DNA of 64,000 nt from a virus, in IMG/VR virus record IMGVR_UViG_3300025870_000011, positions 5,780 to 69,779 of that record. One strand, written 5' to 3'. A program made the position numbers and the translations under genes. Shown piece after piece: positions 2,744 through 32,945 of the stretch. The notes under the pieces were generated by a model that saw only the letters and a list, made by a program, of their open reading frames with translations, searched no databases and had not been told where the DNA came from. The stretch's first letter is position 1. Each line of letters starts with the position of its first letter.

Positions 2744-4069
2744 ATGGGCGAGGCTTTATTTCAGGAAGCCTACTCGACTATGATTGAGAAGATGACCCCT
2801 AAAGATCTAAAAGTGATGGATGAAGAATATCTACGCAGATTTCCGCAAATGCCACTTCGAGATGATTTTGGCGCAATCACGCAGTATTCAGGTGGAGGGT
2901 TTGCCGATGAAGGTTTCCGATCAGCAGGAATCCCGATCTTATCAACTATTGACGCATGGAAACCTGCAAACGATGTCAGATTATTAAATCAAAAAGAAGG
3001 TGAAGTCCTAAGTGGTTATCTTGGCAGAGATCAAGGCCAAAGACATCCAGATGATATGGTTGAGCATTACGCCGACATCTCACAAGGAAAAAAGATTCAC
3101 TTTCACGCATCGCCTCCGTGTCAAGCATTCACAAGAGCGCAACGACAAGGAACGAGTGTTGCGGCTAAAACACCCGAAGAAATGGAAGAAGATAGAGTCG
3201 CTGCTATGCCTTTGATTGGGGATGCTCTCTACACAGTAGAACAGATGATAAAACACCCTGATATAGACTTGGCATCATGGTCACTTGAAGAAGCACCAGA
3301 TGTTGCTAAATATCTAAAAGAAAATCCACATTTTCTCGATAAATATGTCTCCCCTCCCTTTAAGAAAAAGGTAATGGGACTATTGACGAATCATCCAAAA
3401 TTAGATGCAATTGACTTTGGCGCACCTACTACAAGAGGTCGAACATTTATCGGTGAAGGATGGAATGCAGAACCTACGCATTACAATTCAACTTACAAAC
3501 CAAAACCAGGTAGGCTACCTAACCCTTCTGTGCTTGATTTTTTGCCACATCTTCAACGAGAAGAAGAAGAGAACAAGCCAAATAAATTAGCAAAATTGAC
3601 TGATTATAGAGATAAAGGTCGAATCAGTCAAGAAGTTCTTGATCACCTCATGGCTCAAGGTTACATTTCACAATCGGGTGGCATCAATCCAGGTAAAGGG
3701 GGTGCTTCTTGGCGTAACATAAATTCAAAGCATCCAAGTCAAGAAGGCGGTCCTGGAACGGCTTTCCTACACAGAAAACCACTCACTTCATCTGTAACTG
3801 GAATTACACATAACAAACCATCGCATATGTATAATCGGTATTTGACCCCTCAAGAAATCATGATGCTTCAAGGTGGGCGACCTACTTACGATCTATCACC
3901 AGCAGAAGGACAGTATTGGCGTAAAACTAATCCACGATCAGGCAACGTAAAATCAATTGCTGCTGTTGATCAAATAATTGGTAATGCAGTTGCCCCTCCA
4001 GTAGCAAGAGCAATAGGCAGATCAGTAGTAGGTAACAACCTCCAACGCAGGTTGATGGATTATAATTGA
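2744..4069 (+). CDS. DNA (cytosine-5)-methyltransferase-like protein
   Basis: Motif I YSGGGFADEGF, motif IV SPPCQAF, motif VIII FGAPTTRGR, motif IX RYLTPQEIMMLQG, motif X IGNAVAPP. Motif VI is divergent (EEA). Confidence 0.85.
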   Translation: MGEALFQEAYSTMIEKMTPKDLKVMDEEYLRRFPQMPLRDDFGAITQYSGGGFADEGFRSAGIPILSTIDAWKPANDVRLLNQKEGEVLSGYLGRDQGQRHPDDMVEHYADISQGKKIHFHASPPCQAFTRAQRQGTSVAAKTPEEMEEDRVAAMPLIGDALYTVEQMIKHPDIDLASWSLEEAPDVAKYLKENPHFLDKYVSPPFKKKVMGLLTNHPKLDAIDFGAPTTRGRTFIGEGWNAEPTHYNSTYKPKPGRLPNPSVLDFLPHLQREEEENKPNKLAKLTDYRDKGRISQEVLDHLMAQGYISQSGGINPGKGGASWRNINSKHPSQEGGPGTAFLHRKPLTSSVTGITHNKPSHMYNRYLTPQEIMMLQGGRPTYDLSPAEGQYWRKTNPRSGNVKSIAAVDQIIGNAVAPPVARAIGRSVVGNNLQRRLMDYN

Positions 4070-4078: not shown

Positions 4079-5080
4079 ATGAATTGTTTTGAAACGGTTT
4101 GGGATTTCATCAAAGCAATTCCAGAAATTGATCTCGATGATTTTACGCTCGATCAGGTGGTAAATACAGATTATGTATTTCCAAAAGGCGGCCAAATTAT
4201 GAGGCACATGAAAACCCCTCAAGGAAAAAAAGAAATGGCGATGATGCAAGCAAGGAACATTGATTATCCATTAGAAGGGATAGATCTTCCTAAATATCAA
4301 CCTAAAAACGCATGGAATTTGCATGAGGAACTAAGACCTTTGCTTGGTGGTTCAGCAGTTCAAGGAAAGCGATGGGATTTTCTCTCTTCACCAGGAAAAA
4401 TGATAAATAGAACTTTTTCATTACCAACTCATATGTGTAATGTTGGGGGGAAACTACGAGAAGTTCCAGGTTCAGTTTGTGAACATTGTTATGCACACGG
4501 AAGTAATTATAATTACAATGCAGTTCAACAAAAATTGCTTCGTAACTACAACGCTTTGACCAGTAGCGATCCTGTCGAATGGGCATCAGCCGTTGCAGGT
4601 GCAATTCCTGGTGAAACAACGAGATTTCCAATGTTCAGATTCCATGATTCAGGAGATTTGCATTCTGCATCACACGCTTCAATGATTGCGGATATTTCTT
4701 CTAATAATCCAGATGTAATGAATTGGCTTCCAACAAGAGAATGGGAAATGATTGCCGATTTAGTTCGAGCAAGAGGGGGAGATCTCCCTCCTAATTTTGT
4801 TCCACGTATATCTTTGCCAATGGTAAATCAAACGCTTGATAATGACGAAAATGAACGAAGAGGTGTTGATTCATTACCTCAAGAGTTGATTGATTTGATA
4901 CAGGATAACCCTCAAGTAGATTATTCAACTGTTATTACAAAACCAGAATATCGCAGTAGCCGTTCATCTGTTTTATGTCCTGCTTCAAATCCAATAGTCG
5001 GAGGTAATACCTGTGCTGATAACAAATGTAGTGCTTGCTATAATCCAAAAGTCAAAGCAACGGAGTATTTCAAACATTGA
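4079..5080 (+). CDS. Phage Gp88-like Cys-rich (Fe-S / radical-SAM-like) protein with leader FETVWDFIK
   Basis: FSLP...C...SVCEHCYA, FRFHDSGDL, WLPTRE, PPNFVPRIS and a C-terminal CPA...C...C..C cluster, as recalled for the GP88 family. SD GAGGTGA. Confidence 0.7.
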   Translation: MNCFETVWDFIKAIPEIDLDDFTLDQVVNTDYVFPKGGQIMRHMKTPQGKKEMAMMQARNIDYPLEGIDLPKYQPKNAWNLHEELRPLLGGSAVQGKRWDFLSSPGKMINRTFSLPTHMCNVGGKLREVPGSVCEHCYAHGSNYNYNAVQQKLLRNYNALTSSDPVEWASAVAGAIPGETTRFPMFRFHDSGDLHSASHASMIADISSNNPDVMNWLPTREWEMIADLVRARGGDLPPNFVPRISLPMVNQTLDNDENERRGVDSLPQELIDLIQDNPQVDYSTVITKPEYRSSRSSVLCPASNPIVGGNTCADNKCSACYNPKVKATEYFKH

Positions 5081-5089: not shown

Positions 5090-7354
5090 ATGAGCGAAAT
5101 TTTTGAGAAGGCTTGGTATGATCAGTTCAAGCGCAATAAGCGTGATCGGCCTGAGATGGGTACGGTTTCTCTTGATGGCGTTACGGCATATCCTCTCGAA
5201 GATAGATCAGGTAATCTCAATTTAGACCGAATGACCAATTTTCGAGTGGGCAGACCACACAACATAGAGGCATTCCGTAACATCGACTCTACGAGTTTGC
5301 ATTTAAATCCCGGTCGTATAAAATCTACTGGGGAAATCAGACCAAATACTGGCGCATTAAGCGTTATGAGAGGTCAAAAACCAATAGCGATTTCCAACGT
5401 ATTGCCAATCAATAATCCTTTCTTTAGATTAGATGAAAAGGCGCAACGTTCAGCATTTCTTGGCAATCCTGAACGGGATCGAAAAGCAAATCGAACTGCC
5501 CATATGTGGACGGCAGGAGATCTGAGTGCGGCAGAATTGAATGCGATGATGGGTGGGACACAAACACCTCAACAAATTCTTGGCATGACTGATGATTTGG
5601 TTTTAGATCGAAACGACTTTGGCGACAGTATGTTATCATGGAAGTATGGTGATGATCTGTACGAAGCCCCTCGTTTTGCATATGAGGTTTATGATCTGGA
5701 AGATAAGTCATTGCCACACAATAAAAAATGGAAAATGGAAAATCGAAAATACCGTGATGATTTTGCTTTGCCATTCCGTTCCGCACGTGGTCACAGAGTA
5801 TCTGGTTCAGTAGATCCATTGCTCAGAATACCGCTACACTTCGCTGGTCAGCAAGCACCTGAACTCGCACGTCAAAGCAAAGGAGGCCGATATGTTGAAT
5901 GGGAACATCCAGAAACGGGCTATCGCTATGAAGGCGTTCCTGTTCCATTGAGTTTGACTGGTGATTATGATCAACCTGCGGTTTCGAGAGGTATTTCAAC
6001 TGGAACGCATGGATTGTATTTTGATCCACGTGATTTGACGGGCGCAGGAAGAGAGGTTTGGGATTCCGCTTTATCAGGCGATGTTATTCGCAGAGCGTTA
6101 GAGAGCATACAAATACGAGATGAAATGAGTCTTGAAAAGATGCCGCATCCATCTTCGGGGGATTTCAGCCGAAGGCAAGCATTACCAACTGCGTTTCGAC
6201 TTCAAGGGGTCAAAAACAATACTATGTATTCTCAAATAATGGCAGCATTACGTGAAACGCTTGGTGATCGTGAAATGATTGAAACGTTTGGCGGTGGTGG
6301 AGGACTCTCATTGGGGTTTAAGCCATCAAAAGCAATCATTAACGACATAAACCCCGACATAGGAAACCTGATGCGAAGAATCATCCGAGAACCAATGAAA
6401 ATAGACCCGGAACAATACAATGTGGGCGTTGGCGAACCAATCACAATCCCTCATCCATCATTAGGTCAAATGAACATTGGAACAATGACGGAAGAGATGA
6501 AGAATCGTTTTGGTGAAGGCAACAGAACCTTTATTCCAGCACATTTTTACAATCTTCGCAATCAATACGCTGGATTAAGGGAAAAGGCTGCAAGTGGAAC
6601 TGCAACTCCCGAAGAACACGACAAAATGGCTGAAATCTTCTATATGCTTCAATTGACTGGCTTCAACAGTTTGGTTCGATACGGCAAAGGAAAAGAATTG
6701 CCTTCATGGGATAATCCATATTCAACTCCACCAGGAACTACACGTTCAAAGCACCATATCCCCGAAGATGAAGAATTAGCAGGTTCGTTTTTCCAACAAA
6801 TGAAGGATGCTGGACTTTACGACGCTGAAAAAGACCGATACAAAGGCCGTATTCAACCAGGGGGCAACGCTTTCCGACCAACTCCAATTCGAGGGGGAAT
6901 CGGAGAACACGATTTCGCACCCTGGCATGATGCTATGAAAGACTGGGATTGGAGGACTGGAAATGCTTTTGAGTTCTATGATGACATCAAAGACCAAATG
7001 AAAGCCGACAAGAACCTATTGACATTTGACCCGCCTTACTTTGGTGAAGAGGGCGCACATGGTTTCTTTGGAAAAGATGAGCAAGAACGGCTTATTCAAC
7101 AAATGATTGATGCAAAGGACAGGGGCATTCCGACTATGGTTTTCAATTCAATGCATCCTTCAATTGTTGAACCGTTGCGTGAGGCTGGATTCCACATTGA
7201 ACCATTAGATCGAAAAGACCTTTCAAGTTCCGATCCAAACTCAAGAGGAACGGTTGGAGAACTTATGGCTATGGCGAACATTGATCAAGACGCATTCCAA
7301 ACAGCATGGGAGAGGCGTAAGAATCCCCCACCAGCGCAACGCACTTTGTTCTAA
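5090..7354 (+). CDS. Bipartite protein: unknown N-terminal domain plus Dam-like (D12 class) N6-adenine DNA methyltransferase
   Basis: FRLQGVK, motif I ETFGGGGGL, INDINPD, GFNSLVRY and catalytic DPPY, all in the C-terminal half. Leader FEKAWYDQFK. Confidence 0.8.
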   Translation: MSEIFEKAWYDQFKRNKRDRPEMGTVSLDGVTAYPLEDRSGNLNLDRMTNFRVGRPHNIEAFRNIDSTSLHLNPGRIKSTGEIRPNTGALSVMRGQKPIAISNVLPINNPFFRLDEKAQRSAFLGNPERDRKANRTAHMWTAGDLSAAELNAMMGGTQTPQQILGMTDDLVLDRNDFGDSMLSWKYGDDLYEAPRFAYEVYDLEDKSLPHNKKWKMENRKYRDDFALPFRSARGHRVSGSVDPLLRIPLHFAGQQAPELARQSKGGRYVEWEHPETGYRYEGVPVPLSLTGDYDQPAVSRGISTGTHGLYFDPRDLTGAGREVWDSALSGDVIRRALESIQIRDEMSLEKMPHPSSGDFSRRQALPTAFRLQGVKNNTMYSQIMAALRETLGDREMIETFGGGGGLSLGFKPSKAIINDINPDIGNLMRRIIREPMKIDPEQYNVGVGEPITIPHPSLGQMNIGTMTEEMKNRFGEGNRTFIPAHFYNLRNQYAGLREKAASGTATPEEHDKMAEIFYMLQLTGFNSLVRYGKGKELPSWDNPYSTPPGTTRSKHHIPEDEELAGSFFQQMKDAGLYDAEKDRYKGRIQPGGNAFRPTPIRGGIGEHDFAPWHDAMKDWDWRTGNAFEFYDDIKDQMKADKNLLTFDPPYFGEEGAHGFFGKDEQERLIQQMIDAKDRGIPTMVFNSMHPSIVEPLREAGFHIEPLDRKDLSSSDPNSRGTVGELMAMANIDQDAFQTAWERRKNPPPAQRTLF

Positions 7355-7863: not shown

Positions 7864-7943
7864 GTCATTGCCACCGTATAACTCTTATTTCATATTGTTT
7901 ATACCGTCATAGTTCATATACCTGTCAAACATGGGAGGTATCA
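7864..7943. promoter_or_regulatory. divergent intergenic region with TATA-like boxes
   Basis: AT-rich. TTTATA (7898-7903) and TTCATATA (7913-7920); the latter recurs at 29554-29561 at a similar distance from the protease ATG. Confidence 0.4.
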
Positions 7944-8090
7944 ATGGGCAAGCACGTTTCTGTTGTTATGAGAGAGCAACTTTTTGCTAAAATGGAAGAA
8001 GAAAGAGGGCGTGAGTCTAAATCTTCCTTTGTTAATCACGCGCTTGCGTTTTACTTCCAAAATAAAGACAAGGTGAAGCAAGATGAATAA
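7944..8090 (+). CDS. ribbon-helix-helix (CopG/Arc-like) transcriptional regulator, 48 aa
   Basis: Not in ORF track. MGKHVSVVMREQLFAKMEEERGRESKSSFVNHALAFYF: alternating beta-strand, helix, G-x-x-S-x-S turn, helix. SD GGAGGT at 7934-7939. Confidence 0.75.
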   Translation: MGKHVSVVMREQLFAKMEEERGRESKSSFVNHALAFYFQNKDKVKQDE

Positions 8091-8565
8091 ACCAGACCCT
8101 GAAAATCGTAGCCTATATCCTCCGCCATACGCCGCAGAGGACTCAAACCGAATTGACATCAATCTTATTGCTATGTTGCTATGGCAATCACTCTTGACAG
8201 GAATCGCTGTTGCAGTTTCGCATATGGGATGGTATCTTCCAGAGGCAGGTGCTGCTGAAATGGGACTCCAGTATGGCTTAATCTGTTTTGGATTCCTATG
8301 CGTTTCAATGGTACTGTTTCATGTAGGAGGGGTTCGTGACTCTTTAGCATTACGAGCCGAATTTTCGAGAGAAAACCAAGTAGATAAGTGGCAAAGACAA
8401 CAAGCGCGTTTGAATCAACGCAGAGCAAGTAAAAATCGTTACTGGCACGATCAACAACAGCCTGGTAATGGTTACGGGAACAATCAGACTCCCTCACAAT
8501 TCGGAGTTCCTACTCAAATCCCTCAAGTTATCGCAAGTAGTCATAATAAGGAAGATGACAACTGA
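8083..8565 (+). CDS. two-TM membrane protein with basic/Gln-rich tail
   Basis: Hydrophobic segments LIAMLLWQSLLTGIAVAVSH and GLQYGLICFGFLCVSMVLFHV. Confidence 0.7.
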   Translation: MNKPDPENRSLYPPPYAAEDSNRIDINLIAMLLWQSLLTGIAVAVSHMGWYLPEAGAAEMGLQYGLICFGFLCVSMVLFHVGGVRDSLALRAEFSRENQVDKWQRQQARLNQRRASKNRYWHDQQQPGNGYGNNQTPSQFGVPTQIPQVIASSHNKEDDN

Positions 8566-8585
8566 TAGGATCTAAGGGTGGCATC

Positions 8586-8810
8586 ATGTGGCCTTTCACT
8601 ACACAACAAGAACGACAAACAGAAGCCATGTCTCAGATTTTGGCTGAAAACGCATATGAGCGAAAGATGGAACGGGCTACTGGATGGGTACGGACTTTTA
8701 TTGCTTTGATCGGGGGTGTTGCATTGACATTTATGATCTTAATCGGCTTGGAATCACTCGAAATAAATCCTTCGGACGTATGGACTTGGATCAAAGGATT
8801 ATTTTCTTGA
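8586..8810 (+). CDS. small single-TM membrane protein
   Basis: Hydrophobic segment FIALIGGVALTFMILIGL and an amphipathic C-terminus VWTWIKGLFS. Confidence 0.7.
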   Translation: MWPFTTQQERQTEAMSQILAENAYERKMERATGWVRTFIALIGGVALTFMILIGLESLEINPSDVWTWIKGLFS

Positions 8811-8823
8811 ATAAGGTGGCATA

Positions 8824-9555
8824 ATGTCTGCTCTAATCGCAGGGCATATGCTCATGGCATCTGCATCAGCATTTTATTCATTTTATAGAATTCTTAGACC
8901 ATATCGAATCGGTGTGTATGGTCCTTCAATGGTTGGAAAAACAACTCTCGATCAATACCTTACCGTTCCTGGTGACATTGATCCAATCCCTCTTGCTATG
9001 AGAACCGCACACCCCAAAGCAAACACTCATACTGGATTTAGAGAGCCAAACGAAACAAGAAAACAAATTCGTTTAATTAAAGACAAAAAACCAATTAGAA
9101 CAACTGATTTAGCGGGAGATGCGATGTTTCGCAATCTATGGATCGATGATATGTTTCGTAGAAATGTTGAATTGATAATATTCATGGTTGATCACAGAGC
9201 AATGACCTCACCACAGTTTGCTATGGATGCTTCTGCCAGCCTTTCATACTTAGTTGATAACATTACAAAAAAAAGCATCACTAAGAACATAACTCGAAAA
9301 GCAAAAAGAAAATCAAAAAAGTATCAGCCAAAGTTAATCTGTCTCATGATTAACAAAATGGATATTTGGTGGGATGATCGGGCGCAATACTTGTGGCAGA
9401 TGGGATTGCGAAAAGAACACCCAATAGTTGCGCCGTTTCGTGAATCATTGAAACGTTTGAGGAAAGCAGGCTATCGTGCTGAGATCATGGCAATGTCATC
9501 ACAACACGGAATAAATGTTGAAAAGGGTTTAATTGAATTATTGGAGTCTTTGTAA
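8824..9555 (+). CDS. small Ras/Arf-like GTPase
   Basis: G1 GPSMVGKTT, G2 RT, G3 DLAG, G4 NKMD, G5 SSQ; hydrophobic N-terminal helix. Confidence 0.85.
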   Translation: MSALIAGHMLMASASAFYSFYRILRPYRIGVYGPSMVGKTTLDQYLTVPGDIDPIPLAMRTAHPKANTHTGFREPNETRKQIRLIKDKKPIRTTDLAGDAMFRNLWIDDMFRRNVELIIFMVDHRAMTSPQFAMDASASLSYLVDNITKKSITKNITRKAKRKSKKYQPKLICLMINKMDIWWDDRAQYLWQMGLRKEHPIVAPFRESLKRLRKAGYRAEIMAMSSQHGINVEKGLIELLESL

Positions 9556-9592
9556 GAAAAGCCTTATGATGTTGTCAGTTATGGGAGGGTTA

Positions 9593-10567
9593 ATGGCGTG
9601 GAATGCTCAGGCGTTGAATCCGATGTCGTATTTGCCTTATCAAAGGGGCTTAACATTAAATGGTCTTGACAATGAACAATTGAAAATAGTTTCTGCACAG
9701 ACAGGAATTTCATTTGAATTGTTAAAGTCCCAACAACGTGCTGAAATGGCAAGTGCAGGTTCAACTGGAGATGTAGGTGATGAGCAATTGATGCCTACTG
9801 TTGAGATCCAGTTAAAATCAAATCCAAAAAACCCAAACAAAGCGCGTCGAAAAAACATCAAAATGTTGCGAAAAGCACTCAGACCCCCAAATTACAACTT
9901 AGGTTTGTTTAAGATATATCGCTATAATGCTGCACATGAATGTGCTTGCTGTGGAGTTGATATTCGGAGATTTCTTGAGGGGGATAATGCTTATGCTCAC
10001 ATTGTTGATGAGAGAACATCTCTTTCCCTTGCCGACATCTACTGGTTTGATGAAGAAACAGGTAATGCAAAAAAGCCATTGGCGAGAACGCATGGTGATC
10101 ACGGCGATGAAATGAATAGTTCGCTTTGCCCTGCCCATCTTCACATTTACCACACTTTGAAATCATTGGTTCAAGAACATGAAATGGCGGAAGAAGGATT
10201 TTCACGAATCGCCTCAAAGGGAACTAAATTCACAAAGATACCAGGAGTATCTGCTCTGATGGGATCTGGTTCATCAAAGAATAGAAGCACTCCTGAATCA
10301 TTGTTAAAGTATGAAGAATTCTTCTCTTTAATTCACAAAGATGCACAGCATAGCAAAGGAGTTAGTTTAACAACTCTCCCAAATCCAACAACAGGAATAG
10401 TCGATATTGTTCAAGTTACATTCGATCTTCGTGCATTACAAGCGGAGTCGGTATTGGCTCAAAGAAATGCAATGGCAACTGGAGTTCCTATGCAAAATGC
10501 TATGAATACGGCAATGATGCAACAACAAATGCCGCCTGTAACGCAACAAACGGCAACACAAGTATAA
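9593..10567 (+). CDS. hypothetical protein with putative Zn site (CACC...CPAH)
   Basis: Long ORF; ATG at 9593 after GGAGGG; Gln/Met-rich tail. Confidence 0.65.
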   Translation: MAWNAQALNPMSYLPYQRGLTLNGLDNEQLKIVSAQTGISFELLKSQQRAEMASAGSTGDVGDEQLMPTVEIQLKSNPKNPNKARRKNIKMLRKALRPPNYNLGLFKIYRYNAAHECACCGVDIRRFLEGDNAYAHIVDERTSLSLADIYWFDEETGNAKKPLARTHGDHGDEMNSSLCPAHLHIYHTLKSLVQEHEMAEEGFSRIASKGTKFTKIPGVSALMGSGSSKNRSTPESLLKYEEFFSLIHKDAQHSKGVSLTTLPNPTTGIVDIVQVTFDLRALQAESVLAQRNAMATGVPMQNAMNTAMMQQQMPPVTQQTATQV

Positions 10568-10579
10568 GGGTGAATAAAT

Positions 10580-11218
10580 ATGGGATGGTTTAGCAAGAAC
10601 GATACGCAAGCAAGCACACAATTTGGATCGCCAAATGGAAATATGGGTATGCAAGGAATGGGTATGCAAGGAATGGGTATGCAAGGAATGGGCATGGATC
10701 CTTCAATGATGGGTATGCAAATGGCTCAAAATCCAATGATGCAACAAATGGCTAATGACCCTATTACTGCAACTGCACGTTTGCTTCAACTAAACGATCC
10801 AGTAGCACAATTCATAACAACACCAAATATTGGGCTGGTCATGGACTTGATCGGGGAAGTCGTTAGATTGTCAATTAAAGAGTTCTTTACTCAAGTTTCC
10901 TTTACTCAAGACGATACAGGCAAAATTATTCTTGATGCGGCTTCTTTACCACCTGCAATCAATACGCTTTCACCAGAAAATCTTGGTTTGACTATGACTC
11001 GCCTTCAATCTTCGGCGCAACAAACCATCGCAATGAATGAGCAACAGAGGCAGATGTTTATGCAAGCACATTCGATGGGGATGAATATGAATCCGCAACA
11101 ACAACCTGGATTCTTCGGCAGTTTGCTCGGAGGTATGCTCGGTAATCAAGTCCAGCAACAAGGCGGCTTCGGAACGACAGTCGCTAAGGGTGCAGCAATG
11201 GGGGCGACTGTTATATGA
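10580..11218 (+). CDS. Gly/Met/Gln-rich low-complexity protein
   Basis: SD GGTGA; MGWF start; GMQGM repeats; glycine-zipper-like C-terminus GFFGSLLGGMLG. Confidence 0.7.
   Translation: MGWFSKNDTQASTQFGSPNGNMGMQGMGMQGMGMQGMGMDPSMMGMQMAQNPMMQQMANDPITATARLLQLNDPVAQFITTPNIGLVMDLIGEVVRLSIKEFFTQVSFTQDDTGKIILDAASLPPAINTLSPENLGLTMTRLQSSAQQTIAMNEQQRQMFMQAHSMGMNMNPQQQPGFFGSLLGGMLGNQVQQQGGFGTTVAKGAAMGATVI
10643..10696 (+). repeat. 15-nt tandem repeat ATGGGTATGCAAGGA x3 plus a partial copy
   Basis: Exact copies at 10643, 10658 and 10673, encoding MGMQG. Confidence 0.95.
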
Positions 11219-11466
11219 AACAACAACAAGAAAATAACCAACAATACACTCAGAGTCATTACGACACGACAATTCAATTGATGAGTCCAAGCAAGATGAT
11301 TGTTGAGAGCGCAACGATGATTTTCATTATTTCTTTTATGCTTGCTTCCTTTGTGATATTGATTTGGAGAGGTTCGACGTTATCATCGACTCAAATTCTT
11401 TTAGGAACATTTGGTTTGCTCTTTACCTTTGCATTAGCAGTTCGACAATTTGCTTCTTTTCGGTAG
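11215..11466 (+). CDS. small two-TM membrane protein (holin-like topology)
   Basis: 83 aa; TMs ATMIFIISFMLASFVILIW and ILLGTFGLLFTFALAV. Confidence 0.65.
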   Translation: MKQQQENNQQYTQSHYDTTIQLMSPSKMIVESATMIFIISFMLASFVILIWRGSTLSSTQILLGTFGLLFTFALAVRQFASFR

Positions 11467-11477
11467 CCTCATCGGGT

Positions 11478-11696
11478 GTGAGGCGGTTTAATCCGTTACC
11501 GTATAGCCCTCTGCTAACACGGTTCGATCAAGATGGCGATGGTGATTTTGATATGGATGATGTAAAAATTATTTTAGGCAAGAAAGAAAAGCCAACGAAA
11601 CAATGTGCAGCCATGACAAAAAGTGGCAACAGATGCAAACGAAAGTCCGATCTTGATGACAATAACTTGTGTTATATGCATAGAAAGCATGAATAA
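11478..11696 (+). CDS. small protein with EF-hand-like loop and C-x-A-x-T-K-x-G-x-R-C...C-x-x-H Zn module
   Basis: DQDGDGDFDMDD and QCAAMTKSGNRCKR...LCYMH. Start codon uncertain (GTG 11478 chosen). Confidence 0.55.
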   Translation: MRRFNPLPYSPLLTRFDQDGDGDFDMDDVKIILGKKEKPTKQCAAMTKSGNRCKRKSDLDDNNLCYMHRKHE

Positions 11697-11727: not shown

Positions 11728-12438
11728 ATGGCTGGTCGTCAGACACGCAAAAATTGTGCGTTTTGCCAACACCCTAAAAGAGATTTACTTGAAAAGCAAA
11801 TACTTGAAGGTTCATTAGACGTTCAAGATTGCGATCATCAAAACCAATGGGCGGAAGGAACATCTCATCGGCATATGCGGAGGCACTCTGGAGAATATTA
11901 CAACAACAGTAATACTCAATGCCCCATATGCACAGATCCAAATCGCTCACACATTGAATCTGCAATACTCGAAGGAAGGGCAGGCATTGATGACTTTGCT
12001 ATTGAGTTGGGTATTGCCAGTAGTTTGGTATCAAACCACATGGAAAAGCATACAAAACCAATTATTCAACAACATATTCACATAGAAGCATTGCCAAATG
12101 CAATGAAAACGGTTCATGAATCATTAGGCCGTGTTGAAAAAAATATGAATCGTTTAGATCGACTTCTTGGCCGAGTTCTCGATCATGTAGAAAATCAATT
12201 CGATGATGAAGAAGAAGTTATTGAAATGCGCGATGTTGAAACAGCATTAAAGGTACATCGTGAAGTTAGAGATACTTTGGTTGAACTGGCAAAATGGATG
12301 GATAAGGCTGAAACCATTGAAGATAAGCAATCAGTTTCTATCTTAAATGTTTTACAACAGTTTTACACAGAAAAATCACCTCAAGAATGGATTGAGTTGA
12401 AAAGTCGATTAGTTTCTTCTGGAGTGATGAGTGAATGA
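11728..12438 (+). CDS. candidate terminase small subunit (duplicated CxxC-HP/HTH plus coiled coil)
   Basis: Two repeats C-x2-C-x-[HD]P-x-R...H-M-x-x-H followed by a helical coiled coil; first gene of the block leading to terL. Confidence 0.45.
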   Translation: MAGRQTRKNCAFCQHPKRDLLEKQILEGSLDVQDCDHQNQWAEGTSHRHMRRHSGEYYNNSNTQCPICTDPNRSHIESAILEGRAGIDDFAIELGIASSLVSNHMEKHTKPIIQQHIHIEALPNAMKTVHESLGRVEKNMNRLDRLLGRVLDHVENQFDDEEEVIEMRDVETALKVHREVRDTLVELAKWMDKAETIEDKQSVSILNVLQQFYTEKSPQEWIELKSRLVSSGVMSE

Positions 12439-12875
12439 AATCAGTCCGACACTTGATGCTCAAAGATATGCCTGAGCATGATTCTATTCTAAACACAAAA
12501 ATTCCAAAAGATGAATGGACTGTTGAAGATTTGCTTTTTTATACAGATTCAGTTGATCAGGTTGTTAAGCGATGGGTGGAGGCTATTTCAGAACACCTTG
12601 AATATCCGAGCGAAGTGGTTTCAAACATATGGGGTTCTTTGATTATGACTCGTTTGCTAATTGATGATTTAAAAATACTAAAAACTAATCCTGGTGCTGA
12701 TTGTATCTCTTTACTTGACGGAACACAGATTATCACCGATCTTAAACAAAAGATGTTGCCTATGTCAAAATCATATGCGCGTGTACCTTCATTGGCTCAA
12801 TGGTACATGACCCTGCCAAATGAAATAGATGTAGTGTATAGAGCCATACGACGGAGGTTGAAGGATGGTCAGTAG
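12435..12875 (+). CDS. hypothetical protein
   Basis: ATGA overlap with the upstream gene; 146 aa. Confidence 0.65.
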   Translation: MKSVRHLMLKDMPEHDSILNTKIPKDEWTVEDLLFYTDSVDQVVKRWVEAISEHLEYPSEVVSNIWGSLIMTRLLIDDLKILKTNPGADCISLLDGTQIITDLKQKMLPMSKSYARVPSLAQWYMTLPNEIDVVYRAIRRRLKDGQ

Positions 12876-14160
12876 CAACCCAAGAGAATCTGTTCTTTGG
12901 ACTCCAAGAACTCAAGAAATTACAGGCGGATTCCGCCCACGTGAGATGATTGATCACGACATCAATCCGAATGAGGATAGTGACGGTTTATCTCATCATG
13001 GTCGTGAAACACCAGAAGATACCCATAGTCGTGATCAGAAAGATCCTGCAAAACGAAAAGAACGTGCAGTGGCTGAATTAGAACCAAAGATACCGCATAT
13101 TAGTATTAAACCAGAAAAAATAGATGATACTTTAGGAAGATCGCCCCAATTTGAACAAGAACAAACTATGCTTGAAGCAGGTATTGGACTGGACATGAAT
13201 AGAAACGGAATCGGTTTATCAAATGGATTCAATGCGGGTTCTGTTCGTAGCGAAGGACCTAACGTAAAATATGGTCAAAGCAATTCAGTAGTCCCTGCTA
13301 TGCTTGGAAAAACCAGCGACGAGATATTTAATTTTACTTGGGATAGCATCTCAAAAGGCAGACGGAAATACAAAGGCCGTCATATGTATGATGATGAAGA
13401 TTCTGATGAAGATGAACGTAAAGGAAAGGCCAAGCGAAAGCGAAAAAAGAAGCGACAGGCAAAGAAAGGGAAGGCGGCACGTGGAGGCCGACAAATCAAA
13501 TCTATGACGAAGCGACGTGCTGGTAATCTTGAATTGGATGTTGATCGAGGTTCACGTAGGCAAGCGTTTCACCCAATTAAACACACAGAAGCAGTTAGGG
13601 GCGTAGGCCGTTCAAGATCAGAGTCTATTCCGCTTCGATTGAGAGATCCTATTGCATGGGAACGAAAAAAGGCGTATGAGCGAATGCGAAGGCAAGTCGG
13701 TTCTTTGCCACGTGGATTAACTCACCACGCTGATACAAGAGGTGTGGGAACAAAGCGTGGTGCTATTCAAGGAGGCACAATTGGTCCTGGAACAAAGTTG
13801 CCAACCGTTGCACGTATGGGAACTGGGACAACAAAATTTTCAAGAAACGCAATAGGTGATGCTCTTGGAATTCACGATCCTTTAGTTGCTAAATCAGACA
13901 TTCACAAATCCAAATTAAATATTTCACGTTCCGAGATAATGGCTATGAAACGTAAGATTGAGAAGTTAGTTCAACAACTCAACAAATTGACAAAAGCCAC
14001 ACCTGAACTTGGAAACGAAGGTAAGGTTGGCGCACAGGTAAATGGCGATACTGCATCAGCACCAACTGGTGCAACTAAATTGAATGAGGAAGAGAAACCT
14101 TACAGGGCTTTTGTCGATATGGCTTTGAGCAATGAGATGGGATTAACAGGCAAAAGGTGA
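12865..14160 (+). CDS. putative internal virion protein with internal tag and highly basic segment
   Basis: FNFTWDSISK|G at 13321-13359, followed by a Lys/Arg-rich stretch (KAKRKRKKKRQAKKGKAARGGR). Confidence 0.6.
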   Translation: MVSSNPRESVLWTPRTQEITGGFRPREMIDHDINPNEDSDGLSHHGRETPEDTHSRDQKDPAKRKERAVAELEPKIPHISIKPEKIDDTLGRSPQFEQEQTMLEAGIGLDMNRNGIGLSNGFNAGSVRSEGPNVKYGQSNSVVPAMLGKTSDEIFNFTWDSISKGRRKYKGRHMYDDEDSDEDERKGKAKRKRKKKRQAKKGKAARGGRQIKSMTKRRAGNLELDVDRGSRRQAFHPIKHTEAVRGVGRSRSESIPLRLRDPIAWERKKAYERMRRQVGSLPRGLTHHADTRGVGTKRGAIQGGTIGPGTKLPTVARMGTGTTKFSRNAIGDALGIHDPLVAKSDIHKSKLNISRSEIMAMKRKIEKLVQQLNKLTKATPELGNEGKVGAQVNGDTASAPTGATKLNEEEKPYRAFVDMALSNEMGLTGKR

Positions 14161-14244
14161 TCTAATGAGTAGATTAGATGATGAGTTTTGGAGATGGTAC
14201 AATTCTCTTTCATGGTGGGATCAATATAATTTGGAGGGTGTTTG

Positions 14245-16080
14245 ATGCCTCTCGTTGTCTTAGATGATTTTCTTATTCGTAAAGGACATGGATTGTTTAA
14301 CATTCATGAATTTATTGAGGCTATGTTAAGCACAGATAGTGTTGAAGATGGATATGCTGCACTTCAAGACAGCCATCACGATCTAAACCATGACAATTTT
14401 GCAGGGGTCGAAGCCGATGCGGTAAAATTAGCCTCAAATCGAGGGATAGGCGGATTGACACCTCAAGATATTGAAATCATAAATCAAGGCGAGGCAGCAA
14501 ATCCTCAAGCATGGCATCAAGCATTCCAAAAGGCTGTAAACGTTGGCGCACCGTTGATCAATGAAGCCATTGCTAAGACCAATGAAATAAACAAACAGAA
14601 AAATTTTGAAGCAGGTGTGCCGCATCGAGATATACCTATGGCATTTGAAAATGACATGGGAAATTATGTTGCTGTTCAAGCATGGAGGCAACCTGTTATT
14701 GGATCGAAGAACGGACAAACTCATAATCAACAAGGTGCGTTAATTACACAATACAAAAGTGCATTGACTGGAAAACCCGAAGCATATGCACGTCCATACG
14801 GTATCGGACTCCAGGTATTAAGAAAAGAAAAATATCCTGATCTCAAAATGCCAAAAGCAAGCGATGAAATCAATCCAAGAATTTTACATGGCGATTCGAT
14901 TTACATTCGAGATGGAAACCTTCGATCAAGATTTGGTCAAGCAGTTCAAAATATAAAAATGGCATATCCAAATTCCCCTCCCGATCAATTAAAGGGAATG
15001 GCTCTACAAGCGTTGCGAAACCTTCCTGAATTTGATAAATTCGGAGGAATACGACACAGTAGCGGATTACAATATGGAAACTTTTCTGAGGGTAATATGC
15101 AACAAAGGGTAACTGAACAAAAATATGAAAATGCAGATTCAAGAGATTCTTTGTTGGAATTCATACCGCCCGAAGCAAGAGAACATTCAATGTATCGAAC
15201 AACAGGAAATTCTTATTATCACAAACCTGATCCATCTAATGCACAAATAAAATTTTATGCTAAGCATTTTGGATGGGATGAAGAAAAATCAAGAGAAGTC
15301 CACCAAAATGCTTACTCTGGAAAATACGACCACATCTCAAATTCAAGAGATCAACTTATGGCTGCAAAGCGTGATGAATTGTTGGCAAGTGGAAAGAAAC
15401 TTGATTATTTGAGTCCAGATGCAGTTATGCCAAGAGATGCCAACATTCCCTCTCCAGTTGATGAACAACAGACCCCTTCTGAACAACCAAAACAACCAAA
15501 CGCAGGGTCAATGTCAGAGTTCTTCAATCCTGCATTTACTGAAACACCAATACAAGAGGCTGTTTCACGGCCTCCGCCTCTTCCAATTCAACCTCCTGCT
15601 GAACCTCCCAAACAAAATCAATTTGTTGTCGGTGCTTTACCTGCACCACAAAAACCACCTGCACCCCCTGTCTCTTCCCTAAATGCTTATCCCTCAAGAC
15701 CAACTCCGAACCAAAGTACGGGGCGTGGATTCTTGGATAATTTGATGTCAAGGCTCGGTTATGCCTACGAAACATTGTTTCCGTCATTTGGTAAAGCCGA
15801 CTTCTCAAATAAAGATGCTTTGAGTGAAATGCTTGAAAACGTGCAGTTAGAGATCGCTAAAAAAGAAATGAATGTTCCATATCAACATCAAAGCCTTATC
15901 AAATCCTCTTTGTCGATCAAATCAATTGAAGATGTAACAAAGGTCGGCAATACAATGAAAAGACCAAATTCCGATATAATCACAGTTTTTCACAGTAGGG
16001 GAGATTGGGATAATTTAGCGAAATCTTTCGATATGACAAAAATAGAAGTTCAAATGGTGAAGGTGATTTTTAATGAATGA
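14245..16080 (+). CDS. hypothetical protein with Pro-rich linker (putative head-associated)
   Basis: SD GGAGG at 14233; N-terminal DFLIRK|G; Pro-rich region near the C-terminus. Confidence 0.65.
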   Translation: MPLVVLDDFLIRKGHGLFNIHEFIEAMLSTDSVEDGYAALQDSHHDLNHDNFAGVEADAVKLASNRGIGGLTPQDIEIINQGEAANPQAWHQAFQKAVNVGAPLINEAIAKTNEINKQKNFEAGVPHRDIPMAFENDMGNYVAVQAWRQPVIGSKNGQTHNQQGALITQYKSALTGKPEAYARPYGIGLQVLRKEKYPDLKMPKASDEINPRILHGDSIYIRDGNLRSRFGQAVQNIKMAYPNSPPDQLKGMALQALRNLPEFDKFGGIRHSSGLQYGNFSEGNMQQRVTEQKYENADSRDSLLEFIPPEAREHSMYRTTGNSYYHKPDPSNAQIKFYAKHFGWDEEKSREVHQNAYSGKYDHISNSRDQLMAAKRDELLASGKKLDYLSPDAVMPRDANIPSPVDEQQTPSEQPKQPNAGSMSEFFNPAFTETPIQEAVSRPPPLPIQPPAEPPKQNQFVVGALPAPQKPPAPPVSSLNAYPSRPTPNQSTGRGFLDNLMSRLGYAYETLFPSFGKADFSNKDALSEMLENVQLEIAKKEMNVPYQHQSLIKSSLSIKSIEDVTKVGNTMKRPNSDIITVFHSRGDWDNLAKSFDMTKIEVQMVKVIFNE

Positions 16081-17056
16081 TGATTTAATTTTAAGAGCAA
16101 GACTTGATGCACTGGGGTATTCAGACGAATATATTCAAAAAAATGTTATAGGACAAAGTTCTTTACCAGGATCAAGAAGAGGCTCGATTCCCGTTTTTGG
16201 TGCAGCGTTACATCGAAAAAAAATGGGGATGAGCAAGGATGATTATAAACAACAGGTAAGGGACAATAAGACTACTGGTCAGCAAACGGCAAGAAATGAG
16301 ATGTTTGATGCAAATGCTGCGAAAGGAAACATTAACACCGCGCCTCAAACTGTACCAGCAATGACTGAGCCATCAATTAAGAACGCAGATGGCACTACGC
16401 AATCCTTACAGGAAGTAGGTATGCAACAAGCGGGGATTGGTAATGATGATGGCTCAGTTACAGGAACAGGAACTCCTGATCAAGTCAAAACAGACACAAA
16501 AATGGGTGCAGATGGCAACCCCGCACAAACCACAACAACAGAAGTCCATAATGCCAATGCAGATACTACGGGACCGAGTGGTGCTGGAAATGTTACAGAT
16601 ACAACTCAACAACAGCAACCTGATCAACAACAACCGCAGCAACAACCACAGGCTCAAGGTCAAGGTGGCGTAAATGCTCAAGTTCAAGGAATGGCTCAAC
16701 AATTCCAAGCGGGACAGGATATGCAAACGGTTCAGCAAGGAAAAGGTGCAGCAGATCAAACATGGGCGAAAAATAGATCTGGAATGGGCAAGTTTTTCGA
16801 TGTCGCTACTTTTGGTGCAACTGCTGGATTAGGAAAAACAGGCGCAGGTGGACGTAGACAGGCCAATGAGCAATCTCAACAACAGACTAAAAACTACAAT
16901 CAGGCTCAACAACGCAACAATCAACGAGCAATGGGAATGGGAGCATCAATGCCTATCGCTACATCATTCGATTCTCAACTATCGGCCTATTCCGATGTCT
17001 TGTCTCTTAGAAAACAAATTCAAGAAAGAACTACAACTCACAATCTACGAAGGTGA
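16073..17056 (+). CDS. Gln/Gly/Thr-rich disordered protein (putative ejection/internal protein)
   Basis: SD AAGGTGA; poly-Q segments; carries the GKFFDVATFG motif. Confidence 0.65.
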   Translation: MNDDLILRARLDALGYSDEYIQKNVIGQSSLPGSRRGSIPVFGAALHRKKMGMSKDDYKQQVRDNKTTGQQTARNEMFDANAAKGNINTAPQTVPAMTEPSIKNADGTTQSLQEVGMQQAGIGNDDGSVTGTGTPDQVKTDTKMGADGNPAQTTTTEVHNANADTTGPSGAGNVTDTTQQQQPDQQQPQQQPQAQGQGGVNAQVQGMAQQFQAGQDMQTVQQGKGAADQTWAKNRSGMGKFFDVATFGATAGLGKTGAGGRRQANEQSQQQTKNYNQAQQRNNQRAMGMGASMPIATSFDSQLSAYSDVLSLRKQIQERTTTHNLRR

Positions 17057-17060
17057 TACG

Positions 17061-19511
17061 ATGGAAGATCGTGATGACGCTTTGGATTTTATTTACAAGG
17101 GCTTTAGGGATGGCCGTCAAAATCGACGTGATTTTAGACGACAAAGAGGAATTGATCGATTACGATCTACGCTCGCACCAACATTAGAACCTCATCAACG
17201 AAGCGGCTACATACAACCTCAACAAGAGATGGCTTCATCACCTCCTGCACAAGAACAACCAACTACATTTGGGGATGATATAACAACCCCTGATGATGAA
17301 TCAACGCCTCAAAATGAGGCAGCACCAGTTCAAGAAGCGGTTGCATCTCCGCCAACGCTTAGTCCTCAAGAACTCCAAGAACAATTTGCGAATTTAGGCG
17401 TTCCAGGCCACAACCCCGAAGGGGGTTCAAATGCAGACCGACACGATTATGTCAATGATGGATTTCCAACACAAACTCCAGACATTACTCAAAACGTTCC
17501 CGAAGCAGCACCAGTTCAACCCCAAACACCCGAAAGAAATTTAGGAACTCGCGCAGAGGGAGATGATCCATTTCCAACAAATTATAACGACCTATCTGAT
17601 GAGCAAAGGAGCAGAATAGTTGAAGATATGAGTCGCAGACATCAAGACTTCAATTTGGGAACTGAACAATATAAGCAAGCCGTAATAGATGGAGTCATCA
17701 CTCAGGAAGAAGCAGACGAAAAAATTCAAGAGTACAGAAAAAGGGTATTTCGAGAGGTTCCAGAAGAACATCACCCACAGACTCAGACATCAGAACAAAT
17801 TGCTGAACCGTCTGATGAACAACGGGCTGTTCAAGAAGCAACTCAAAGTGAAGAACCCTTTAAACCTCCGACAAGAGAAGAAACTGAACACAGCAACGCA
17901 TTTGAAGAGGCATATCCATTGATGTTCGATGATACATCGGAAGTTACTCAAGGCGTACATCGAGGCATAGATGAAGGATGGAACGAGTTCAATAGACTTG
18001 GCGAAGAGTTAGAAAGCGAAGAAGCGCAGCCAACTCCTGAGCAAACGCCTCCTAAAGAGCCAACAAAGGAAAAAGCAACTACTGAGGGAAAGAAGCGAGT
18101 AACAAAATTGGCAGATAAGTTGAATGCACAAGTTGGCCGATCTATGGGCAATTCAAAACCAACTCCAAAAGAAGAATCAAAGGTTCCAAAATTAGGATCG
18201 AGTCCTAAAGGTGAGGATGTTTTGAGTGTCATTGAGATGGTTCGAGATGGCGACGCAAATGCTAAATCAGAATTGTATAACGCTCTTGGTGATTTAGAAG
18301 ATAATGATTCACCTCATTATGATGATGCTTTAGAAGCGATCAGCGATTTCAATAATTCATCATCGAATGAAAAAAAAAAAGTAAATAGCGATTCTAAGGA
18401 TAGAAAAACGCAAGATCTCAAAACAACGATTAAGCGCAAACCTAAATCTGATGAATTCACACGTTCTTTGGTAAAGGCATTACCAATGAAAGACCTTAAT
18501 TTGTTACAAGCAGCATTAAGTCTGTCAAAACCTGCTTATGGAAATGATGGTTTTAGTCCTGTTTTGGTGGATCAATTAGGCCGAATTACAAATATCAAAA
18601 ACGTAAATCATCCACATACTGCAATGATGCAAATTGCTGAAAATCCCGACACACATTTCCCAATGGATCCCGCATTGTCATTCCCAACTTACAATGTCGG
18701 CAAGATAAATCCAAATGCAAAACCCATATATGAAGGACAAAATTATTCAATAGATAATATCGACAACCTAAATCAATACTACCAGGAAGGAAAAAGAAGA
18801 AGTAAAAAGCCCGATATGGAAGTGGCTCTACAAAGCGATGATTTTTCAATTCTTGATGGTGGCAAACCAAGATCATTAACCAGTAAAGATCGAAAAGAGA
18901 TTATAGCCTCGCTGCCACGTAGAGCAAGACAACCCAAACTTCCAAAATTAGAATACGGATCTCCATTCTTTGATCCATCAGGAAACGCTTATGGTGGAAC
19001 ATGGCAACTGCCAATTTTACAGGGAGGAAAATCTCATAGTGGAGTAATGCCTCATGACATTTTAGGCATGAGAACCATAGGAGGGGGAAACTACACTGAA
19101 AAATACGGGAACTTTAGTAATATCCAATTCCCCAGTTCCGAAGGTTACAAAGAAGTAGGTAGCATACACCCAAGTGAATTCCGTAAATTGATTCGTAATG
19201 TTCACAAAGACAAAAATAAAACCAAAGATGGCAGAGTTCGCATAGGAGAATCTCTATATGATCTGGATCATTTGAAACGTCTTGCAGGAGGAATGGATGA
19301 TGACATTGCTTCTGAAAAATTAAAGTTTACTCAAATGGCAGCAGAAGATACCAAAGCATATGATGGAGAGGCGGCAGGACCTATCAACATAAGAGGAAGA
19401 GGATTTGAACAGTATCAAGCAGAACCAAGTTTCTTTGATTTTATGCAAGCCCCTGAGTTTGAAGATACTAACCCAACTGAATGGACGAGTATGAATGATT
19501 TGTTTGAGTAG
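17061..19511 (+). CDS. large acidic, Pro/Glu/Gln-rich protein
   Basis: ATG at 17061 after AGGTGA, preferred over the ORF-track start at 16848; N-terminal LDFIYK|G. Confidence 0.65.
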   Translation: MEDRDDALDFIYKGFRDGRQNRRDFRRQRGIDRLRSTLAPTLEPHQRSGYIQPQQEMASSPPAQEQPTTFGDDITTPDDESTPQNEAAPVQEAVASPPTLSPQELQEQFANLGVPGHNPEGGSNADRHDYVNDGFPTQTPDITQNVPEAAPVQPQTPERNLGTRAEGDDPFPTNYNDLSDEQRSRIVEDMSRRHQDFNLGTEQYKQAVIDGVITQEEADEKIQEYRKRVFREVPEEHHPQTQTSEQIAEPSDEQRAVQEATQSEEPFKPPTREETEHSNAFEEAYPLMFDDTSEVTQGVHRGIDEGWNEFNRLGEELESEEAQPTPEQTPPKEPTKEKATTEGKKRVTKLADKLNAQVGRSMGNSKPTPKEESKVPKLGSSPKGEDVLSVIEMVRDGDANAKSELYNALGDLEDNDSPHYDDALEAISDFNNSSSNEKKKVNSDSKDRKTQDLKTTIKRKPKSDEFTRSLVKALPMKDLNLLQAALSLSKPAYGNDGFSPVLVDQLGRITNIKNVNHPHTAMMQIAENPDTHFPMDPALSFPTYNVGKINPNAKPIYEGQNYSIDNIDNLNQYYQEGKRRSKKPDMEVALQSDDFSILDGGKPRSLTSKDRKEIIASLPRRARQPKLPKLEYGSPFFDPSGNAYGGTWQLPILQGGKSHSGVMPHDILGMRTIGGGNYTEKYGNFSNIQFPSSEGYKEVGSIHPSEFRKLIRNVHKDKNKTKDGRVRIGESLYDLDHLKRLAGGMDDDIASEKLKFTQMAAEDTKAYDGEAAGPINIRGRGFEQYQAEPSFFDFMQAPEFEDTNPTEWTSMNDLFE

Positions 19512-30945: not shown

Positions 30946-30972
30946 AACTCAAAATAAATGGAGATGACTAAG

Positions 30973-32588: not shown

Positions 32589-32945
32589 ATGGGAATTAAA
32601 GTCCAATACGTGGGCGGAAGATCTTACACCGAATTCAGAACGGCAAACGGACCTATTGGTTTCGCACGTGGAATGACACGTGAACTTTCTGATTCAGATG
32701 GTCTTGTAGTCAAAAAACTCGTTGATGATGGATCAACTATGTGGCAAATCATTGGTGACGAACCTACTCAAACAGATGCTATGAAATCTGCAATTGAGCC
32801 GACTGTCGAAGAACCAGGAGAAGAAGCAGAGATCGATTACAATGAACTTTCAAGGGCTAAACTAATGGCTTTGTGCAAGGAACGTGGCATTGCTGTTAAG
32901 AACACCTCGAAGAAAGCAGAACTCATTGAACTTTTGTCGGCATGA
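32589..32945 (+). CDS. protein with C-terminal HeH/Rho-N/SAP-like domain
   Basis: DYNELSRAKLMALCKERGIAVKNTSKKAELIELL. Confidence 0.7.
   Translation: MGIKVQYVGGRSYTEFRTANGPIGFARGMTRELSDSDGLVVKKLVDDGSTMWQIIGDEPTQTDAMKSAIEPTVEEPGEEAEIDYNELSRAKLMALCKERGIAVKNTSKKAELIELLSA

Follow-up and report, generated by a model that had tools for sequence, protein, structure and literature searches.

A conserved cassette around a divergent Arf-like GTPase in tailed viruses of probable Poseidoniales hosts

A tightly packed block of small genes around a GTPase

We analysed a stretch of 64,000 nucleotides (hereafter the window), positions 5780-69779 of the 69.8-kb IMG/VR virus record IMGVR_UViG_3300025870_000011, which is judged 66% complete, and concentrated on a small GTPase gene and the cassette of genes that surrounds it. 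The window has a G+C content of ~41%, and all its sizeable open reading frames (ORFs) from 7944 to 58812 lie on the + strand. Between 7944 and 12438 (+) small genes are tightly packed and encode, in this order, a 48-aa protein, a protein with two transmembrane (TM) segments (A), a protein with one (B), the GTPase, two proteins named D and E, a second two-TM protein (F), a Zn-knuckle protein (G) and a putative DNA-binding protein (H). An earlier reading of the letters alone (the original prediction) had listed the ORFs from A to G as a membrane-protein operon with a GTPase. These ORFs are present on the + strand, and the two-TM, one-TM and two-TM calls were reproduced by Kyte-Doolittle analysis (19-aa window, threshold 1.6), which found two segments each in A and F, one in B and none in the GTPase, D and E. 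The same reading placed the block, ending at 11696, in tight packing just before the packaging genes. The packing is real, with intergenic gaps of -11 to +31 nt from 7944 through 14160, and extends past the right edge of that block; the proximity to packaging genes is loose, since the TerL gene (19520-20956, +; phrog_38, E 1.6e-75) starts 7.8 kb downstream, and it is not fixed, as the cassette of a second virus lineage lies between head and tail genes.

A profile of the GTPase retrieved 247 IMG/VR contigs. Conservation counts refer to 81 loci, namely the 80 best and one from the first scan, in which the GTPases are 40-99% identical and the neighbours were detected by iterated hidden Markov model (HMM) searches of all ORFs. 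For the second lineage, found on 375 further IMG/VR contigs, 15 loci were examined. Because relatives of the GTPase are encoded on all these contigs, a chance ORF is excluded.

The GTPase is a strongly diverged Ras-like protein

The GTPase (8824-9555, +; 243 aa) is a divergent protein of Arf/SR-beta-like character (SR-beta, signal recognition particle receptor subunit beta). It carries GPSMVGKTT as G1, an Arg-Thr pair in a long switch I, DLAGD as G3, NKMD as G4 and SSQ as G5. The G1 motif GxxxxGK[ST]T, the switch-I RT, the G3 DxxG and the G4 NKxD were each found in 81/81 sequences and a G5 of the S/A-x-Q/K/R type in 80/81, so that the complete G1-G5 set claimed by the original prediction is kept in 80-81 of 81 relatives. 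An AlphaFold2 model built from a 27-sequence alignment (pLDDT 83.8, pTM 0.82) has a Ras-like fold, and at E≤1e-3 Foldseek matched it to 500 or more PDB chains, headed by Rab27B, Rab6, Rac3 and Rap1. With G1-G5 in order and this fold, the protein is a member of the Ras-like small GTPase superfamily.

Its place within the superfamily is less conventional. In Pfam the window GTPase gave only sub-threshold matches, to GTP_EFTU, MMR_HSR1, Roc and SRPRB (E 0.004-0.03); no gathering cut-off was passed, the SR-beta family (PF09439) reached 14 bits against a cut-off of 25, and Arf (PF00025) gave no match at E≤1. Among 27 family members, Arf was the commonest Pfam match (7/27 at E≤0.01, best E 1.3e-4) and Gtr1_RagA had the best single E-value (3.4e-6, in 2/27). 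The best solved relative of the family profile was 8oun_A (E 2.3e-5), followed by Arl8 proteins (E ~0.01), and the alignment to both spans DxGGQxxFRxxW; 8oun and 8oum are cited in the accessible parts of papers on Asgard Arf GTPases. Of 1.84 billion representative proteins, no more than 100 were matched by the profile at E≤1e-3, and most of these are fragments from within the family. The marginal full-length matches include one with the source name 'signal recognition particle receptor subunit beta' and one with 'ADP-ribosylation factor family protein'. By these profile matches the family is an isolated, strongly diverged branch nearest to Arf/Arl/SR-beta/Rag and outside any curated family. 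The Arf-type affinity expected from the original prediction is thus borne out by 8oun_A, Arl8 and the Pfam Arf matches.

The likeness to Arf, Arl and Sar1 and to the Asgard Arf-like proteins (8oun, 8oum) covers the Ras-like G domain, the NKxD motif and the aligned DxGGQxxFRxxW segment, and may extend to the predicted N-terminal helix, which is moderately amphipathic. At the position following DxxG most such GTPases have the catalytic Gln, and Sar1 has a His. In the viral family this position is Q in 42 of the 81 sequences, E in 24, D in 12 (the window's clade) and H in 3, so although the Arf switch II pattern DxGGQ-(F)RxxW aligns in the profile, the Gln is kept in only about half of the members and the window itself has DLAGD. 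The viral GTPase differs further from Arf/Arl/Sar1 in staying under the Pfam Arf cut-off, in a switch I that is longer by ~15 residues and in a polybasic insert between G3 and G4. These two motifs lie 67-76 residues apart, and an insert with at least 5 Lys/Arg per 12 residues was found in 81/81 sequences and in 15/15 of the second lineage. Eukaryotic Arf proteins carry Gly2 for N-myristoylation; it is absent here, for in the alignment of 27 members position 2 is occupied by Ser, Ala, Met, Asp or Val. Unlike the Asgard proteins, the GTPase is encoded by viruses, and these viruses probably infect Poseidoniales.

We also examined the N-terminal helix, which the original prediction had called hydrophobic. 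A helix is predicted for residues 2-24 of the AlphaFold2 model, and its hydrophobic moment (0.22-0.67 in the family; shuffle p mostly 0.01-0.1 for the best of 9 windows) is that of a moderately amphipathic segment. Its second half is too polar for a TM anchor, and no TM segment was called in the GTPase at the Kyte-Doolittle threshold in 78/81 sequences. To this extent the N-terminal helix of the original prediction is supported.

Some family members already carry the automatic JGI label 'GTPase SAR1 family protein'. A tblastn search with the GTPase against 50,697 cultured phage records gave no match, and nothing was found when the remote relatives P0145 and P0161 were used as IMG/VR queries for further lineages. 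Among viral structures (BFVD) there were 45 matches at E≤1e-3, nearly all the named ones from giant eukaryotic viruses. The Rab-, Ras- and Ran-like proteins of giant viruses (Nucleocytoviricota) are likewise virus-encoded small GTPases. They are, however, recent captures from eukaryotic hosts, whereas the present GTPase is part of a fixed cassette in an archaeal tailed virus and is without a detectable donor in the host.

The cassette is co-conserved and its order is fixed

The original prediction regarded the genes as one system and named their co-conservation as a test. In the 81 loci the order A-(B)-GTPase-D-E-F-(G)-H and the strand were invariant. D, which follows the GTPase directly in this order, and E were both present in 81/81 loci. 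F and H were each found in 80/81, the exception being a contig that ends first, and A in 79/81, both exceptions being cut off upstream. B was matched by HMM in 51/81 loci, and 27 of the other 30 have an ORF of 78-85 aa of the same build directly upstream of the GTPase. G was less constant (HMM match in 49/81); it went undetected in the 30 loci of greatest distance, and neither G nor the 48-aa gene nor the genes after H were detected in the most distant clade. In a single locus of the 81 the GTPase and D are separated, by a gene on the opposite strand (L013:10781-11512, -) for a 243-aa DNA methyltransferase with a DPPY motif.

A second lineage carries the same core at another position

We recognised a second lineage, PolB-encoding and magrovirus-like, by a distant GTPase relative of 223 aa that matched the profile at E 4.8e-33. 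Here again a D homologue directly follows the GTPase in 15/15 loci, which extends the co-conservation beyond the first lineage, and the gene order is a two-TM protein, a protein of ~73 aa, the GTPase, D and an E-like protein. The ~73-aa protein has 1 TM segment in 7/13 distinct sequences, the others falling just under the threshold. Profile-profile comparison (hhalign) between the lineages gave 99.9% for the GTPase (E 9e-32), 95.6% for D (1.3e-8) and 93.2% for E (2.9e-7), with all 20 off-diagonal pairs at 18% or below. By these profile alignments the homologous core is GTPase-D-E, and the upstream TM proteins are common to both lineages only in position and architecture. No counterpart of F was found after E in lineage 2, and H and the 48-aa protein lie outside its cassette.

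We then compared the surroundings. The window encodes, besides TerL, the hallmarks of a tailed virus: a portal (22321-24120, +), a prohead protease (29587-30945, +) and a SU10-type major capsid protein (MCP; 30958-32142, +). The structural genes are colinear between the lineages, comprising 26104-29544, the protease, the MCP, 32589-32945, 34393-35976, 36239-36676, 36687-38870 and 39178-39588. In the window the cassette is upstream of the whole packaging and head block, whereas in lineage 2 the MCP (phrog_24667, E 1.2e-25) lies on one side of it and a tail protein (phrog_290) on the other. Since the same core sits elsewhere in an otherwise colinear structural module, the cassette has moved as a unit, and this is the strongest evidence that its genes work together.

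Properties of the partner proteins

D (9566-10567, +; 333 aa) starts at ATG 9566, or possibly at TTG 9533. In 30 homologues, down to 25% identity, C126, A173-R174 and C188-P-x-H191-L-H193-x-x-H196 are invariant, a pattern that probably forms a Zn site. The model of D reached a pLDDT of 74.8, with a core (78-210) near 90; Foldseek gave 0 matches to PDB at E≤1e-3, and the protein is without a recognised fold or family. Co-folding of D with the GTPase, GTP and Mg returned a score of 0.00, which weighs neither way.

E (10580-11218, +; 212 aa) begins with MGWFS and continues with a Met/Gln/Gly-rich stretch of low complexity, a conserved central domain and a glycine-zipper-like C-terminus, an end of the GFFGSLLGGMLG type. 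No family or atlas match was found for E, and a search of the ESM Atlas gave no usable match for either D or E.

Three small TM proteins accompany the core. A (8083-8565, +; 160 aa) has predicted TM segments at 28-46 and 66-84 and a charged C-terminal tail rich in Arg, Gln and Lys, an architecture that is holin-like. B (8586-8810, +; 74 aa) has one predicted segment (37-55), and F (11215-11466, +; 83 aa), which is limited to the window's lineage, has two (32-50 and 58-76). All three agree with holins in small size and at least one TM segment, and A also in its charged hydrophilic C-terminus; no cassette protein matched a holin family in PHROG, Pfam or NCBIfam.

G (11478-11696, +) is the weakest element of the block and a variable one. 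Its start is uncertain and is probably GTG 11478 rather than the listed TTG 11364, which overlaps F. The original prediction saw in it an EF-hand/Zn protein. The C-terminal Zn knuckle is indeed conserved in 16 aligned homologues, but the calcium-type DxDxDG loop is present in only 9 of them, and EF-hand_6 matched at E 0.076 with 13.2 bits against a cut-off of 25, so that membership of the EF-hand family does not follow. The other weak matches of G, to DUF5763 and the N-terminal Zn motif of GvpO, were also under their cut-offs.

H (11728-12438, +; 236 aa) contains two CxxC...H...H repeats resembling helix-turn-helix units, with C10, C13, H49, H53, C65, C68, H104 and H108 invariant, and a helical C-terminal half. 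PHROG matches of 30 H members point to DNA-binding families, 'terminase small subunit' families appearing in only 3 and 1 of them. We take H to be a DNA-binding protein, for which small terminase and late regulator are possible roles. In an oligo-dT RNA library, two contigs were identical to 12197-12482 (the H/I junction), which records presence in the library and not transcription. The same library held no contig on 8083-11696 and a second RNA run gave no match; as contigs only, these data are silent on expression and timing.

The 48-aa basic protein (7944-8090, +) heads the block and was matched by HMM in 49/81 loci. It had no NCBIfam match over cut-off; from its appearance we take it to resemble a ribbon-helix-helix regulator. 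In the divergent intergenic region upstream (7864-7943), two elements are conserved in 18 related loci, TATTT(C/A)A some 55 nt and TCATA some 28 nt before the ATG, and these could be a promoter or an operator for the 48-aa regulator-like protein. Matches of Hemerythrin to H and of PpoB2 and DUF6418 to A and F were under or at cut-off and fell on helical or TM regions; they were disregarded.

The virus is probably archaeal and its host probably a member of Poseidoniales

A scan of 185,579 species genomes found the GTPase on five contigs. One of these, of 106 kb, belongs to a Candidatus Poseidoniales single-cell genome. The other four are contigs of 8-16 kb (L089, L092, L093 and L091) in metagenome-assembled genome (MAG) bins of Parvibaculum (2), Maricaulis and Promethearchaeati, and are probably mis-binned viral contigs. 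A relative of the window virus (G002; 96.6 kb, 91% complete) encodes a full-length group II chaperonin (L016:6313-7938, -), whose best solved relative is the Thermoplasma thermosome 1a6d (E 3e-111); the same genome also has genes for a UvrD-type helicase and a PD-(D/E)XK nuclease. Because of the single-cell contig and the thermosome gene, we consider the host to be probably Poseidoniales (marine group II, MGII), archaea that are abundant in the ocean. The virus is therefore probably archaeal, as had been anticipated, while the haloarchaeal setting of the original prediction is not supported. In 81 genomes of the order Poseidoniales the profile matched only the same 106-kb viral contig and the other 80 were without a relative, so there is no detectable host donor or provirus among those searched.

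The two lineages differ in replication genes. PolB (PF00136) was found in 0/4 records of the window's lineage, one of them 91% complete, and in 5/5 near-complete lineage-2 genomes, in which conversely no chaperonin gene was found. Magroviruses carry an archaeal-type replication module including PolB, and their group B1 has split DNA polymerase genes, according to the part of PMC5434244 available. Lineage 2 is similar in its PolB, partly split, and in its genome size of ~90-98 kb. In two of its genomes (G086 and G087) the PolB match falls into two parts in different frames, separated by an in-frame stop, which recalls the split genes of group B1. On the lack of PolB in the four records we reject a classical magrovirus identity for the window's lineage; it is a related group lacking PolB. 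Vyasavirus P01 (ICTV profile PMC13108676) was considered as a close relative and is not close, so far as the cultured phage collection shows.

A probably membrane-directed cassette with a possible role in egress

We are confident that the cassette is real, functionally linked and directed at a membrane. The membrane side is suggested by the N-terminal helix and polybasic insert of the GTPase, by the TM proteins flanking it and by the glycine-zipper-like end of E; a late role is suggested by the location of the cassette, co-directional within a late and morphogenetic block in both lineages.

On this basis we tentatively propose, as the favoured reading, that the genes might act late in infection as a GTP-controlled module, remodelling or rupturing the membrane so that the virus can leave. 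The cassette would be produced late in infection. The GTP-bound GTPase would dock on the cytoplasmic membrane through its N-terminal amphipathic helix and polybasic insert, beside the small TM proteins, and would there recruit D and E. The glycine-zipper end of E and the holin-like TM proteins would deform or perforate the membrane, allowing virions to escape, and the nucleotide state of the GTPase would set the timing. A more specific form of the proposal, in which the cassette would be the egress machinery of Poseidoniales tailed viruses, with an Arf-like GTPase, effectors D and E and TM partners bending and rupturing the membrane on a GTP schedule, we regard as doubtful.

Phage lysis cassettes typically change place while the order of the structural genes stays the same, and the changed position of the GTPase cassette was counted for egress on this ground. 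Other points of likeness with phage holin-endolysin cassettes are the small TM proteins, the charged tail of A and the tight co-directional packing with late genes. Unlike those cassettes, it comes without a holin family match and without an endolysin: a Pfam scan of 40 window ORFs, a set outside which the 2600-aa ORF and many small ORFs fall, showed no cell-wall enzyme, and within this scope the original prediction was right that no endolysin is visible in the window. This negative was also counted in favour of a late, membrane-directed role. We also know of no described lysis cassette with a conserved core of a GTPase and two large soluble proteins. General properties of phage lysis cassettes also appear in the review PMC10791045. 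This review describes the players in egress of archaeal tailed viruses as uncharacterised, in agreement with the view of the original prediction that this process is poorly understood. A candidate egress cassette is of interest for this reason.

Several observations weigh against egress. None of the cassette proteins matches a lysis family, be it of holins, lysins or another kind. The N-terminal helix has only a moderate amphipathic character and could simply pack on the G domain. The residue following DxxG varies (Q/E/D/H), so a hydrolysis 'timer' is not obviously conserved. Virus genomes often encode small TM proteins, for a variety of reasons, and for A and B hhalign between the lineages returned 1.3% and 1.0% only, so that their homology is not demonstrated. 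The methyltransferase gene that splits the GTPase from D in one locus indicates that tight translational coupling is not required. Finally, the lineage-2 position between head and tail genes is equally compatible with a morphogenetic role.

This last role is the alternative that survives best, although we consider it somewhat doubtful. Head or tail assembly could rely on the cassette as a membrane-anchored platform or chaperone; alternatively, D and E could be carried in the particle as internal or ejection proteins. Apart from the lineage-2 position between MCP and tail protein, such a role would account for the window cassette sharing its co-directional block with TerL, portal, protease and MCP, and for D and E being conserved as widely as the structural genes; low-complexity, Gly-rich proteins also occur among phage ejection proteins. 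A change of position while the structural order stays colinear would however be unusual for core morphogenetic genes, no cassette protein matches a PHROG structural family, and to our knowledge no small Ras-like GTPase takes part in the assembly of tailed viruses.

Rather unlikely, in our view, is a remodelling of the envelope for purposes other than release, in which an ArvA-like GTPase would produce vesicles as decoys or for spread, or would serve superinfection exclusion or receptor masking. The precedent is the ArvA(OapA)-ArvB-ArvC system of Haloferax volcanii, in which, according to the portion of PMC10927574 available, an Arf-like GTPase with an N-terminal amphipathic helix drives vesicle formation and has a Cys-rich, Zn-ribbon partner in its operon, ArvB and ArvC belonging to DUF2073 and DUF2072. 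The viral cassette likewise pairs an Arf-like GTPase, with a predicted and moderately amphipathic N-terminal helix, with a Cys/His protein and membrane proteins, and the Haloferax system, which acts on membranes, may be regarded as the closest functional analogue, compared by operon features and not by ArvA sequence. Yet D and its neighbours match neither DUF2072 nor DUF2073 at E≤1, and the viral TM proteins and E are extra; the link to the haloarchaeal vesicle system drawn by the original prediction thus found no support in Pfam relations to the ArvA operon partners. The absence of relatives from the other 80 genomes of the host order argues against capture of a host vesiculation gene, and for superinfection exclusion a universal conservation inside the late gene block would be unusual.

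It is unlikely that the GTPase is a cytosolic regulator, a switch for late transcription, packaging or translation that would work with the DNA-binding proteins at the ends of the block. The opening of the block with the regulator-like 48-aa protein, its end here with the Zn/helix-turn-helix protein H and the weak matches of the GTPase to GTP_EFTU and MMR_HSR1 would suit such a function. The lineage-2 cassette, however, lacks H and the 48-aa protein but has TM proteins, and the polybasic insert and the N-terminal helix are conserved.

A role in membrane-protein targeting appears very unlikely. Here an SR-beta-like receptor GTPase, together with the Met-rich E, would insert the viral TM proteins A, B and F. 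SR-beta, a GTPase of the Arf-like branch, is tethered to the membrane and recruits a partner; the weak SRPRB match had E 0.034 and one marginal relative is so named by its source. The Met-rich grooves of SRP54 and Get3 offer a parallel for E, with three small TM proteins encoded alongside as possible clients. All the supporting matches are nevertheless under cut-offs, a TM anchor is lacking in 78/81 GTPase sequences, no SR-alpha-like partner is present, and E resembles no component of SRP or Get.

It is highly improbable that the thermosome gene and the single-cell link mislead and that the virus is a phage of marine bacteria: the MAG bins of four of the five cellular contigs, Shine-Dalgarno-like AAGGTGG sites preceding genes and the closest cultured TerL relatives (Bacteroides phages, 27% identity) could be so read, but the 106-kb Poseidoniales contig, the thermosome, the short MAG contigs that fit mis-binning and the magrovirus-like, partly split PolB of lineage 2 (PMC5434244, in its accessible part) speak against it. 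A defence function was also considered; PADLOC, run on 8 window and 2 lineage-2 proteins, returned only a weak Cas11a match on H (E 0.003), which was taken as chance.

If the more specific form of the egress proposal were true, the cassette would be a counterpart, in a prokaryotic virus, of the membrane deformation that Arf and Sar1 drive, having arisen or persisted outside Asgard archaea and eukaryotes. Whatever its function, a virus-borne and deeply divergent branch is added to the Arf-like GTPases of the archaeal world and bears on the history of membrane-remodelling GTPases; being compact, arranged around an Arf-like switch and without a detected host homologue, the cassette is also a small and concrete gene set to express and assay. 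The gene call itself is not new, as the JGI label exists, while the cassette and its conservation appear to be undescribed. The word 'GTPase' is absent from the main texts of the papers on these viruses PMC5434244, PMC10160649, PMC11706807 and PMC5332604, whose supplementary gene tables may list the gene, and our literature search found nothing relevant on a GTPase in Poseidoniales viruses or on a small Ras-like GTPase in prokaryotic viruses.

Genes flanking the cassette

Between the cassette and TerL, five conserved unannotated proteins of 146, 431, 612, 327 and 887 aa are encoded at 12435-19511; none had a Pfam or PHROG match, and the 431-aa protein is highly basic and of low complexity. The tail region ends with two giant ORFs of 1690 and 2600 aa (45004-57872), the former without a Pfam match. 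Upstream of the cassette lie three genes whose presence varies among relatives: one at 2744-4069 for a C5 cytosine methylase, one at 4079-5080 for a protein of the GP88 family and one at 5090-7354 for a protein of 754 aa that includes a D12-class N6-adenine methylase domain.

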